From Acidobacteriota bacterium (lineage in GTDB: Bacteria; Acidobacteriota; UBA890; WLXD01), in the NCBI GenBank assembly GCA_965205505.1, contig CBDBHB010000009.1:1536001-1600000 (forward strand): a stretch of 64,000 nucleotides of DNA, read 5' to 3'. Below are positions 3,086 to 63,446 of the stretch, in pieces; position 1 is the first letter of the stretch; each line of letters begins with the position of its first letter. A program made the translations under genes and the position numbers. The notes beneath the pieces are model-generated. The model was given only the letters and a program-made list of their open reading frames with translations, was not told the origin of the DNA and made no database searches.

Positions 3086-3435
3086 CAGACGTTGCCCGAT
3101 AGCACGTGACGGCGCTTGGCGACATCGACGATACGTGCCAGGCGCGCCGCCTCCGCCTGCAGCACCTCGAGGCCGATGTCGGTCAACCGGTAGTATTTGC
3201 GGCGCGGATCGTCGCCGGATTCCGCCGAGCCGACCTGTTCCACCAGCCGCGCCGCGGCCATCTCTTTCAGCGACCGGTACAGCGTGCCGGGGCCGAGCCG
3301 GATCTCTCCTCCGGTCTCCCTCTCGATGGCGTCGGCGATGCCCAGCCCATGCAGTTGGCCGGGGCTCAGAGCCAGCAGGATGTGCAGCACCGCCGGCTTG
3401 AGCGGCGAGATAGTCGGTAGCTTACCGTAGGTCAT
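3085..3435 (-). CDS. PadR-family transcriptional regulator
   Basis: HILLAL...LHGLGIA...GPGTLYRSL...RRKYYRLTDIG; directly upstream of the ADOP permease. Confidence 0.9.
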   Translation of the reverse strand: MTYGKLPTISPLKPAVLHILLALSPGQLHGLGIADAIERETGGEIRLGPGTLYRSLKEMAAARLVEQVGSAESGDDPRRKYYRLTDIGLEVLQAEAARLARIVDVAKRRHVLSGNV

Positions 3436-60094: not shown

Positions 60095-61560
60095 TGCCTG
60101 CCTGGATGGTGGTGTTCGGGGTGACCCTGGGATATCTGCTGGCGTCACTCATCGTGGGCCTGCTTTCCGGGCGACGGGCGAGCTCCGGACCCGAAGGGTA
60201 TATCGCCGGTGATCGGTCGCTCGGCTTCGTGCTGATGTACTTCATCATGGGTGCGTCGATCTTCTCGGCGTTCTCTTTTCTTGGTGGACCGGGTTGGGCG
60301 TACTCGCGCGGCGCTGCGGCCTTCTACATCCTGTCGTACGCCACGGTCGGACTGATTCCCTGGTATGCGTACGGGCCGCGCGTCGCCAGGCTCGGACGGC
60401 GGTTCGGCTACGTCACTCAGGCGGAGCTCTTCGCGCACCGGTTCGACAGCCGATGGTTGTCGGCCGCGCTGGCGATCATCAGCCTGGTGGCCTTCGTTCC
60501 TTACCTGGTGCTGCAAATGCAGGGGGCCGGCTACGTCTTCAACGTCGTCACCGAGGGACGGGTGCCGCATTGGCTGGGTGCAGCGATTGCCTACGGTGTG
60601 GTGTTGATCTACGTGCTCGCCAGCGGCGTGATGGGCGTCGGGTGGACCAACACGTTTCAGGGCGTCTTCATGATGGTGCTCGCCTGGGGTCTTGGGCTCT
60701 ATCTGCCTTATCGGCTCTATGGCGGCGTCGGGCCGATGTTCCAGGAGCTCGCCGCCGCCGTACCGGAGATGCTCGCGCCGCCCGGTCTGGATGGCGCCGG
60801 TAACCGCTGGAGTTGGGGTGGATACTCGAGCGCCGTAGCGGTGTCGGCGATTGGCTTCAGCCTGTGGCCGCATTACTTCATGAAGATCTACACGGCGAGC
60901 AGCGAGCGCGTACTCAAGAAGACGATCATCTTCTACCCGACCTTCCAGGTGTTCTTGATTCCAATCATCTTCATCGGTTTCTCGGGGATTCTCCGCTACC
61001 GTGATGTGGTTCCGGCCGATGCCATCCTGCCTACAATTCTGATGTCGCTGGATCTCCCCGCGTTCGCCGTGGGGCTGTTCTGTGCCGGTGCCCTGGCGGC
61101 TTCCATGTCGACGGGCGACGCGCTGCTGCACGCTGCGGGGTCGATCATGGTGCGCGACTTCGTGTGCGTGCTTTCACCGCGATCCCTCACCGAGCGGCAG
61201 CAGACACGGTTGATCCGCACGTTCGTGCTCATAATCTCGGCCTTCGCCTACTACTTCGCGGTCGTTTCCGAGCTCTCCCTGGTTGCTCTGTTGCTGCTCG
61301 CGTATGGCTTTCTAGTGCAGATCGCGCCGGTCCTCGTGGCAACGTTCTACTGGCCGCGCGCCACACCACAGGGCGTGCTCTCGGGACTGGTGGTCGGCTG
61401 TGGCGTGGTCATCCTCTTCTACTACGTGCCGGCCCTCCAGTGGCAGCAGGTCCAGCCTGGGATCTTCGGCCTGGCGGCCAACCTCGTCACCCTGGTGGCC
61501 GTGTCGCTGCTGACCGCGCCGATGGACGAGGCACACGTCGAGCAGTTCGTGGTGAGCTAG
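60094..61560 (+). CDS. Sodium:solute symporter family transporter
   Basis: YIAGDRS, FSAFSFLGGPG, ALAASMST. Confidence 0.9.
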   Translation: MPAWMVVFGVTLGYLLASLIVGLLSGRRASSGPEGYIAGDRSLGFVLMYFIMGASIFSAFSFLGGPGWAYSRGAAAFYILSYATVGLIPWYAYGPRVARLGRRFGYVTQAELFAHRFDSRWLSAALAIISLVAFVPYLVLQMQGAGYVFNVVTEGRVPHWLGAAIAYGVVLIYVLASGVMGVGWTNTFQGVFMMVLAWGLGLYLPYRLYGGVGPMFQELAAAVPEMLAPPGLDGAGNRWSWGGYSSAVAVSAIGFSLWPHYFMKIYTASSERVLKKTIIFYPTFQVFLIPIIFIGFSGILRYRDVVPADAILPTILMSLDLPAFAVGLFCAGALAASMSTGDALLHAAGSIMVRDFVCVLSPRSLTERQQTRLIRTFVLIISAFAYYFAVVSELSLVALLLLAYGFLVQIAPVLVATFYWPRATPQGVLSGLVVGCGVVILFYYVPALQWQQVQPGIFGLAANLVTLVAVSLLTAPMDEAHVEQFVVS

Positions 61561-61657
61561 ATGAGATGAGAAGGCCAACCTCCTGAACGCAGTAGCCTGA
61601 CGGCTCTGCAAACGTTTCTTCAAACGTAACGGGCTCGAAGCCCAAGGAGGTTGGCCG

Positions 61658-62699
61658 ATGAGGAGTGTAACGATTGGACTGGACGTAAGCGACCGGTACA
61701 GCCGTATGTGCGTGCTCGACAGTAAGGGCAGGGTGATGGAGGAAGGGCGGGTGAGGACGAGCCCGGAGGGGCTGGCGAGGCGGTTCGGGTGCGAGGAGCC
61801 CGCTCGAGTAGTGCTGGAGGTTGGAACGCACTCGCCGTGGATGAGTGAGCAGTTGAAGCAACTGGGTCATGAGGTGCTGGTGGCTAACCCGAGGCGGCTG
61901 AAGCTGATCTATGGCGAGCACGGACCGACCGGTTGGATGCCGAGCACCTGGCACGAGTGGGCAGAATGGACCCAAAGCTGCTTAAGACGGTGCAGCATCG
62001 AGGCAGACAAGCGCGAGCGGATCTAGCCGTGATTCGGAGCCGAGATGCTCTGGTAAAGAGCCCACGCAGTTGGTGAGCCATGTGCGTGGTGCGGTCAAGT
62101 CGGCCGGTTGTCGTATTCCCAGGTGCTCGACGCCGGCGTTCGCGCGCACCGCGCCAGAGCACATACCGGAGCGGCTCAAGGGAGCGCTCGAGCCGGTGCT
62201 TGAAACGATCGCCATGCTGACGGGCAACATCCAGCAATACGAGCGTCAGATCGTGCAGCTGTGCCAGGGGCGATACCCGGAGACACAGCAGCTCCAGCAA
62301 GTGGCCGGGGTCGGAGCTCTGACCGCACTGGCGTATGTGCTGACGCTCGAGGAGCCGGAACGGTTCAATACCTCCAGAGCCGTGGGCCCGTACCTGGGAC
62401 TGAGACCGAAGAAACGGCAGTCGGGGGACAAGGACCCTGCGCTACGAATAACCAAGGCGGGCGACAAAATGCTCCGACGCCTGTTGGTGGGCTCGGCGCA
62501 TTACATCCTGGGCCCCTTCGGGCCCGATACTGAGCTCAGACGCTGGGGGCTCAAGCTGGCCGGACGCGGTGGTCCTCATGGCAACAAAAAGGCAGCAGTT
62601 GCTGTCGCCCGTAAGCTCGCCGTTGTGCTGCACCGACTGTGGCTGAGTGGAGACGAGTACGAACCGTTGCGCGCACCTGTAGAGGTTTCAGCAGCATGA
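61658..62699 (+). CDS. IS110 DEDD recombinase/transposase, two frameshifts (~61920, ~62060)
   Basis: TIGLDVS, VVLE, TDRLDA (shifted frame), GVGALTA, YLGL..RQSG, AVARKL. Confidence 0.88.
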
Positions 62700-62945
62700 A
62701 CTAACCCGCAACCAGGAGGTCGGTAGGGCGACGCGACCCAACGGTTATCGATCTGACCGCCCGGTCCGGGCGACTGCGAAGGTCACTACGAGCTTCGAGC
62801 TCGGCAGCTAGATTGCAGCGCCTCGAATCGGGACGGACCCCAGAATGCACCGGACGACCTGAATCCTCGTCCACCAGAGTGCGAATAGGAGCATGGCGTG
62901 CAGATCGATTCTTCGCTGGGCACCACATTGCCCTTGACCGAACTA
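62700..62945 (+). ncRNA. Putative bridge/seek RNA of the IS1111-type element
   Basis: Stem-internal loop-hairpin at 62769-62822 whose loop strands match the target flanks; second loop resembles the circle junction. Confidence 0.65.
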
Positions 62946-62959
62946 GGCCTTCTCATAGA

Positions 62960-63234
62960 AGTGGCCTGTAGCAGATGATCGTTGCCTATCGCAGATGGGA
63001 TTTGCGGGTGAGATCAAGGCGCGGCGACGAAGTCGATGCTGGGACATCGTCCAGGAGCCGCAACGCCGAGATCGCCCGCAACTGCCCATCTGTCCGGAGG
63101 ATGGTGGCGAACTGGGCCCGTCTGCGGCGTTGCTCCTCCTCCACGATGGGCAAACATCGTCTCGTCGGAGCGCCTGACATCCGGGCCCATTTCGCCACCA
63201 CGATAGGCAACGATCATCTGCTACAGGCCACTAG
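62960..63234. mobile_element. MITE/REP-like palindromic element with 31-bp perfect terminal inverted repeats
   Basis: GTGGCCTGTAGCAGATGATCGTTGCCTATCG (62961-62991) and exact inverse (63201-63231); CTAG at both reconstructed ends. Confidence 0.8.
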
Positions 63235-63446
63235 GGTGGGCCGTTCTCGGATGGCGGGTTCGGGCGACGTTCCTTGCTGCGCGTTGCCAGCAGCATCGTC
63301 GTCAGGCCCAGCAAAAGCTCATCGGCGAACGGCAGCATGTCGGGCACCAGCAAGTCGAGCACGAACAGCCCCGCGGTGAGCGCAAACAGCCACGGGTAGC
63401 GCAGTTGCGAAAAATAGCGCAACAGAATGGCCGGCAGCGCACTCAT
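63231..63446 (-). CDS. Small membrane protein (DUF6116-like)
   Basis: LRYPWLF..LFVLDLLVPDMLPFADELLLGL. Confidence 0.65.
   Translation of the reverse strand: MSALPAILLRYFSQLRYPWLFALTAGLFVLDLLVPDMLPFADELLLGLTTMLLATRSKERRPNPPSENGPP

Follow-up and report, generated by a model that had tools for sequence, protein, structure and literature searches.

Genetic organization of the locus and classification of the element

The window analysed in this study, a stretch of 64,000 nucleotides of acidobacterial DNA, carries an insertion sequence (IS) with a broken transposase gene, lodged between a gene for a sodium:solute symporter (SSF; PF00474; 60049-61560) and a MITE-like element (Table 1). The left flank of the IS ends with ...GAGCT and the right flank begins with TGGCCTG. 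The left tip CTAG (61557-61560) of the MITE-like element has been split off by the IS, and its right tip, ...CAGGCCACTAG, is inverted and ends at 63233. The TAG stop codon of the symporter gene lies within the CTAG tip, the left core AG providing its final two bases; because this stop falls exactly at the IS boundary, the insertion leaves the symporter reading frame unaltered.

Table 1. Features of the insertion sequence, its predicted guide RNA and its target in the window
Feature	Position	Strand	Remarks
IS110-family, IS1111-group insertion sequence	~61559-62961	+	
Left copy of core dinucleotide AG (CT on opposite strand)	61559-61560	+	Target/IS boundary
Left-end spacer ATGAG, 5 nt	61561-61565	+	
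Left 11-bp subterminal inverted repeat ATGAGAAGGCC	61566-61576	+	Relatives have matching geometry
Transposase gene, broken in this copy	61658-62699	+	ORFs 61658-62026 and 62070-62699
Predicted target-binding stem-loop	62769-62822	+	Conserved fold, 0 variable bases in 27/27 copies
Outer stem, 5' arm GGCGACTGCGA	62769-62779	+	
5' guide AGGUCACUA (DNA AGGTCACTA)	62780-62788	+	
Inner hairpin	62789-62803	+	
3' guide GCAGCUAG (DNA GCAGCTAG)	62804-62811	+	Generally used part CUAG, 62808-62811
Outer stem, 3' arm TTGCAGCGCC	62813-62822	+	
Strand CCCCAGA, homologous to the relatives' left-end (right-donor) guide	62838-62844	+	
Conserved stem UGCAC (62846-62850) / GUGCG (62879-62883)	62846-62883	+	99% of cells paired
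Variable hairpin GGACGA / UCGUCC	62852-62857 / 62867-62872	+	Enclosed by the UGCAC/GUGCG stem
Predicted right-end (left-donor) guide AUAGGAG	62885-62891	+	Assigned with homologues
Outward-facing TTGACC, -35-like	62934-62939	+	22 nt from the right end
Right subterminal inverted repeat GGCCTTCTCAT	62946-62956	+	
Right-end spacer AGA	62957-62959	+	
Right copy of core AG	62960-62961	+	
MITE-like element (target), ~275 bp, inverted-repeat ends of ~30 bp	62962-63233	.	41 near-full-length genomic copies

Elements of the IS1111 group are distinguished by subterminal inverted repeats 7-17 bp long, with short extensions at the termini, and by a longer non-coding region located downstream of their transposase gene. 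In the window, the repeats measure 11 bp and the terminal extensions 7 and 5 nt, core included, and 262 nt of non-coding DNA follow the transposase gene (62700-62961) compared with 97 nt that precede it (61561-61657).

The transposase gene is frameshifted in this copy, which lacks ACAA after position 61922 and a G after position 62062. Its broken halves reach 63.1 bits against PF02371 (cut-off 21.3) and 26.6 bits against PF01548, which is below the cut-off of 29. The intact transposase encoded by other copies matches both families (PF01548, E = 1.1e-17; PF02371, E = 5.6e-17) and scores 206.9 bits against the NCBIfam equivalog NF033542, 'IS110 family RNA-guided transposase' (cut-off 140). It combines a DEDD (RuvC-like) N-terminal domain with a C-terminal Transposase_20 domain, as expected for the IS110 family. 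The 348-aa protein also contains the sequence GLRPKKRQSG, which fits the IS1111 motif GL-P----S(T)G, and residues G249, L250 and G258 of this motif are invariant among 20 homologues. The nearest solved structures are those of the ISCro4 and IS621 transposases, the IS621 match (E = 4.5e-8) extending across the C-terminal half; homologous proteins with 76-93% identity were found as well. Every IS1111-group feature tested is present in the element. A first-pass annotation of the window had described the element as IS1111-type, with a module for an RNA guide on the 3' side of its transposase gene, and is supported in this; all sequence strings quoted there were recovered at their places.

Copies of the element and state of the transposase gene

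A search of the genome to which the window belongs (5.98 Mb in 9 contigs) yielded 33 BLAST segments, which correspond to 27 full-length and about five partial copies with 98.5-100% identity. The 348-aa protein is encoded in a single open frame in 10 of the 27 full copies. Repair of the transposase, which had been suggested for a plasmid assay, is unnecessary because these intact copies exist.

The 4-bp ACAA deletion is shared by 12 of the 27 copies and the 1-bp G deletion by 5, and the copies concerned sit at different sites. From this distribution we conclude that defective copies have either spread with help from intact ones or been homogenised by gene conversion. The defective copies all retain an unchanged target-loop region. 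One copy (L003, at G000:C9:2702238) carries three tandem ATGAG units at its left end instead of two.

All full-length copies occupy the tip of a MITE-like repeat

The core dinucleotide AG is found at both boundaries of all 27 full copies in the own genome (G000); across 50 loci, comprising the window and 49 relatives described below, it is present at the left boundary in 45 and at the right boundary in 48. Next to the core, the right flank reads TGGCCT in 26 copies and TGACCT in one, and CT precedes the left AG in 25 copies, with TT in one of the remaining two and an extra ATGAG repeat in the other. We therefore define the ten-base target as CT-AG-TGGCCT, in which AG is common to both junctions. 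The right end faces TGGCCT or TGACCT in 27/27 cases, in agreement with the sequence-specific insertion in a single orientation that characterizes the IS1111 group.

The IS boundaries and the empty site deduced earlier hold, and 109 other places in the genome carry the site CTAGTGGCCT without interruption. Sixty of these unoccupied sites continue with GTAACAG; the uninterrupted sequence CTAGTGACCT is present twice. Among the 27 occupied sites, 16 continue with a tip of the GTAACAG/GTAGCAG type and 5 with one of the GAGTCAG type. Insertion takes place at the outer tip of the MITE-like element's inverted repeat. The palindromic element that the first-pass annotation had noted beside the IS is a genuine and general target: the flanks of the other copies, proposed at the time as a check, place all 27 full copies at this same site.

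The tip variants differ in their occupation. The variant CTAGTGGCCTGAGTCAG carries the IS at five sites and is unoccupied at none in G000, and the GTAACAG variant is unoccupied at the 60 sites mentioned above. A related element in a Gemmatimonadales genome (L085) has on its two sides an inverted repeat of 27 bp, CTAGTGTCCTGTAACAG…, which is very similar to the MITE-like tip of the window, so this repeat family occurs in other genomes, too.

A stem-loop downstream of the transposase gene matches both strands of the target

The region 62762-62830 folds into an outer stem, an internal loop and a hairpin (fold z = -2.1). As in bridge RNAs and seekRNAs, the two strands of the loop are complementary to opposite target strands and overlap at the core. 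The 5' strand AGGUCACUA complements T-AG-TGGCCT on the top strand, one of the pairs being U·G, and at the single TGACCT site its complementarity is full. In the 3' strand GCAGCUAG, the part CUAG is common to every site, and a longer match to AGCTAG is seen in the window copy and three others of the 27. The earlier proposal of AGCTAG as the left target stands for CT plus AG (25/27 copies) and is not supported for the longer string as a general target. A comparison of 25 occupied with 109 empty sites showed no consistent preference of the left guide beyond CTAG: G at -3 is found in 9/25 versus 21/109 (p = 0.11) and A at -4 in 9/25 versus 12/109 (p = 0.005), and G at -6 goes in the opposite direction (2/25 versus 40/109).

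To judge these matches against chance, we used 5000 shuffles of the 246-nt non-coding region of the window alone. The 9-nt first strand, with one G·U allowed, was matched in 49 shuffles and the 6-nt AGCTAG in 272; CTAG alone appeared in 2875 and is not significant by itself. The target-loop match is real and above chance, and it is decisive only together with the other copies and the relatives.

Taken by themselves, such short matches could also be coincidental within a structured 3' untranslated region or terminator, the recombinase reading the repeat tip directly. This reading draws on the shortness of the matches in the window alone (p ~0.01 for the 9-mer, 0.05 or worse for the others) and on the status of the guide RNA as a prediction from sequence. 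However, a scan detected no terminator-like site on the + strand, the only one being located on the minus strand at 61630-44, and the compensatory changes in the stems and the guide strands that change with the flanks in 40 relatives of many targets and in the retargeted element L118 (see below) speak against a protein that recognizes its target unaided. We consider it highly improbable.

Conserved RNA structure and covariation of guides and flanks in related elements

With a profile of 20 homologues we collected 80 loci from species-representative genomes of many phyla (51-62% protein identity). Both ends were found by patterns in 49 of the 80, with the geometry seen in the window: the left end consists of AG, 5 nt and then the repeat ATGAGAAGG. 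The flanks vary widely among these loci. An RNA alignment of 40 sequences, for which the right end and conserved motifs served as anchors, comprised the window and the 39 relatives in which motif searches found both modules; it left out L051, L079 and L108, which are near-duplicates of L049, L076 and L107, as well as L031 and L050, in which the RNA motifs were not found.

RNAalifold recovered both the outer stem and the stem of the second module from the 40 sequences. In a 17-pair structure, 96.4% of 666 cells are paired, compared with only 20-50% in slid controls, and 8 of the 17 pairs show changes on both sides versus 3.2 in shuffles, none of 500 shuffles reaching the observed values. The helices contain G·U pairs, with 8 UG cells in one pair and 38 in another. 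The relatives share with bridge RNAs and seekRNAs a conserved stem-loop that has an internal loop and compensatory changes. A basal helix that would lengthen the first stem by pairing alignment columns 3-7 and 108-112 has just 52.5% of its cells paired and is not claimed here. A fold of the whole region was dominated by long-range pairing and uninformative.

The 5' strand pairs with the right flank of its own element at a mean of 5.85 of 7 positions (n = 40) and with the sites of other elements at 3.46 (n = 1518). Own-flank counts amount to 4 in two elements, 5 in 12, 6 in 16 and 7 in 10; foreign flanks reach 6 or 7 in 33 of the 1518 comparisons. The 3' strand, read in a fixed register ahead of AG-A-UUGCAG, matches its own left flank at 4.12 of 6 positions and those of others at 1.45. 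The guides covary with the target, as is expected of a bridge RNA or seekRNA, though the 40 elements are related; because several of them share targets (e.g., L061, L064, L074 and L080), the covariation statistics count more independent events than there are. The covariation check proposed with the first-pass annotation came out in its favor, both loop strands changing with each element's own flanks, and its view of the loop 62780-62811 as target guides is borne out by this result together with the 27/27 sites.

A further proposed check, a covariance model of the 3' region, was carried out with a model (R1) built from the 40-sequence alignment. In the own genome, 31/31 matches fall inside copies of this IS. 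Matches were also found in 5 of the 80 related genomes, and none in the same-genus (0/4) or same-family (0/10) genomes searched. The best match outside the own genome, at 108 bits, is L118, whose scaffold is nearly that of the window RNA and whose guide reads ACGGACUCUA next to a right flank of AGTCCG. By its sequence, L118 represents a natural retargeting. It is a relict copy (G011:C1:3910496-3913634) that lacks the 5' part and occurs once in that genome. Upstream of it lies an ORF with a GVGTGKTH ATPase motif, which resembles an IS21-type helper gene.

A different arrangement was observed in an Acidobacteriaceae element, L107, and likewise in its near-duplicate L108: two target-type stem-loops with different 5' guides are arranged in tandem (L107:3049-3100 and 3162-3212). 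One guide, UUUUCCACUC, fits the flank of L107 (TGGAAAA) perfectly and the other (…UUUUCCCA…) fits that of L108 (TGGGAAAA). These tandem stem-loops may constitute a natural two-guide element. A metagenome scan for close relatives returned only 7 loci with at most 61% identity, and an Rfam scan of 61400-63400 with E values up to 10 found no bridge-RNA family, the four matches being at chance level and to unrelated eukaryotic families.

The second module mirrors the right end of the element and matches the left end poorly

In the relatives, the second module reads GGA, a strand of 7 nt and AUGCAC, then a variable hairpin and a short linker, and finally GUGCG, A/G, AUGGAAG and C. Its right-end strand follows the IS end: A is present in 6/6 elements with the end CATAGAAG, the window included, and G in 34/34 with a G at that place of the end, and the sole element whose core is GG also carries GG in its RNA. 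The AUAGGAG of the window has one G for A, a G·T wobble with the end. A 7-nt match such as ATAGGAG arose in 252/5000 shuffles; it is borderline alone, and the predicted assignment is confirmed by the homologues. The proposal that this strand serves as right-end donor guide agrees with this tracking.

The opposite strand behaves differently in the window and in the relatives. CCCCAGA pairs with the core G and the left end at 4/8 positions, the lowest value of all 40 elements, whereas the relatives' left-end strands form 5-8 of 8 possible pairs with the core G and the bases that begin the left end. Opposite left-end position 4, the strand has U in 8/10 relatives with A there and C or U in 30/30 with G. 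The first-pass annotation had assigned a role as donor guide to CTCGTC (62866-62871), an assignment that we discard: the string is the 3' arm of the hairpin GGACGA/UCGUCC, its match is at chance level (769/5000 shuffles), and it has no counterpart in the relatives, whose equivalent arms are unlike their left ends. Accounting for any 6-mer in 62823-62945 that matches either junction strand, 4 were observed and 3.5 expected, with 195/500 shuffles as high. The second region of the window folds no better than its shuffles (z = -0.2 to -0.8), and its minimum-energy fold places CTCGTC within a stem. A search by eye in the 40-sequence alignment established no closing helix for the donor loop. The description of the RNA as one with readable target and donor guides is retained for the target strands and the right-end strand and dropped for CTCGTC; the four guide assignments include one error, and one guide is degenerate.

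This degenerate strand raises the question of how far the RNA is truly bispecific. If the RNA only picked the target, the protein would read the IS ends mainly by way of the 11-bp subterminal repeats and the second module would be partly vestigial. The left-end strand with 4/8 pairs in an element with 27 near-identical copies fits such a division of labor, and so do data reported for ISEc11, in which an 82-nt RNA with target matches was sufficient for movement and reprogramming is described as using the seekRNA and the donor flank, with no IS-end guide in that description (PMC11187229). On the other hand, the right-end strand tracks the end across the relatives (6/6 and 34/34), and their left-end strands are better paired and covary at position 4. 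Donor loops have been predicted in IS1111 elements by Durrant et al. (PMC11208160), and excision of IS621 is stated to depend on recognition by the donor arm (preprint 10.64898/2026.08.31.748434). We regard an RNA that selects the target only as a serious alternative, albeit one that falls somewhat short of being probable.

A bispecific RNA that has lost one of its segments would be an intermediate case. No other element encountered here is as successful as the one with the decayed left-end guide (4/8), which has about 30 copies, of which 10 are intact; if the strand is assigned correctly, it might complete the full cycle with three of the four guide segments, the left end being read through the subterminal repeat. 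We put this forward tentatively and think it rather unlikely. If true, it would occupy a natural middle position, with seekRNAs that serve the target only on one side and bispecific bridge RNAs on the other.

RNA-library coverage of the region and a putative circle-dependent promoter

Contigs from two metatranscriptome runs of one study cover 61741-62991 and 62245-62954, and DNA is possible in such libraries. The variant of the gene that they contain is the intact one; neither RNA ends nor a circle junction appeared in the contigs of the two runs. A promoter scan found no sigma-70-like promoter in the linear DNA. Near the right end, the outward-facing TTGAC is conserved in 31 of 32 readable aligned rows, TTGAC(C/A) being located 22-26 nt from the end. 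On a circle, this hexamer would precede a weak -10-like hexamer spanning the junction by 16-18 nt. TTGACC may supply one half of a promoter, which would become complete solely on the excised circle. For this IS family, a promoter completed on the circle was reportedly described by Prosseda and colleagues in 2006.

Elements of the IS200/IS605 type, cited by Durrant et al., choose their targets by DNA. For the element studied here, RNA and DNA guides are indistinguishable by sequence analysis, and the guide segments could pair with the target as single-stranded DNA of the element end in the same manner. But they are located 150-180 nt inside the end, within helices that are conserved with G·U pairs, and G·U/G·T wobbles are tolerated in the guide pairings as well. 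Members of the family are reported to co-purify with RNA (PMC11187229), and NCBIfam calls the family RNA-guided. A DNA guide has very little probability in our view.

Proposed mechanism and implications

Site specificity, conserved structure, guide/flank covariation and protein family membership are observed directly in our data. Very probably, the element is an active IS1111-group IS with a dead transposase in this copy and a 3' non-coding region that encodes a bridge/seek RNA aimed at the MITE-like tip. The 5' guide would pair with T-AG-TGGCCT, tolerating one U·G at the usual site and forming a perfect match at the rare TGACCT site, and the two target pairings would overlap at the core AG, the presumed place of strand exchange. 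In the second module (~62838-62891), AUAGGAG would mirror the right end of the IS, its left-end partner strand being degenerate in this element. By analogy to experiments on ISEc11, ISPa11 and IS621, the guide would act as an RNA bound to the DEDD recombinase and recombination would proceed via a circular intermediate. The MITE-like element probably offers the IS over 100 additional places to land in this genome.

The one unusual point of this system is that a clearly active element has a weak left-end strand, and we treat it only as a lead; the element may inform the extent to which the IS1111 branch relies on donor pairing. In a single genome, one guide is associated with 27 sites that carry the IS and 109 that are empty, and its tolerated U·G position forms a wobble at 26 sites and a perfect pair at one. 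Together with a panel of 40 related scaffolds that carry many different natural guides, this provides a useful data set for guide-design rules and for the need for donor pairing in a less-studied branch. The known mechanism is unchanged by this finding.

Comparison with known RNA-guided elements

Descriptions of RNA guides for IS110 and IS1111 elements date from 2024 (PMC11208160; PMC11187229), and Durrant et al. report bridge RNAs predicted in the right end of 93% of IS1111 elements (PMC11208160). As described by Siddiquee et al. (2024, PMC11187229), the seekRNA elements ISEc11, ISPa11 and ISKpn4 resemble the present one in their downstream non-coding region and subterminal inverted repeats. 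The transposase of 348 aa lies within the reported range of 330-350 aa and shares the GL-P----SG motif, and the IS1111 seekRNAs likewise have two short overlapping matches with the top-strand complement on the 5' side (PMC11187229). The RNA predicted here has a first module of ~70 nt and a total length of ~140 nt, similar to the short and long seekRNA forms of 82-96 and 148-172 nt given in that report (PMC11187229). It differs from ISEc11, ISPa11 and ISKpn4 in sequence, in having the tip of a MITE-like repeat as target and in that the RNA is predicted from the DNA.

With the IS621 bridge RNA (Durrant et al. 2024, PMC11208160; 8WT6 and others), our RNA has in common internal loops flanked by stems. 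Further shared features are two guides with an overlap at a CT/AG core, one long and one short (9 and 4 nt, each with the core counted), a second loop predicted to mirror the element ends, and a DEDD recombinase. Unlike the IS621 RNA as presented in PMC11208160, it is encoded 3' rather than 5' of the gene and its strand order is reversed. The long subterminal repeats, the core AG in gene orientation and the degenerate left-end guide also set the element apart from IS621.

With regard to the target, IS4321 is said to insert in a single orientation into the terminal repeat of another repeated element. ISPpu9 and ISPpu10 are described as inserting in one orientation into palindromic repeats with many equivalent sites, and the present element is alike. 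In contrast to these three, its host repeat belongs to an environmental bacterium and is a MITE-like element of 275 bp. The element is a clear but expected further example of the bridge/seek-RNA recombinases, and its target is new.
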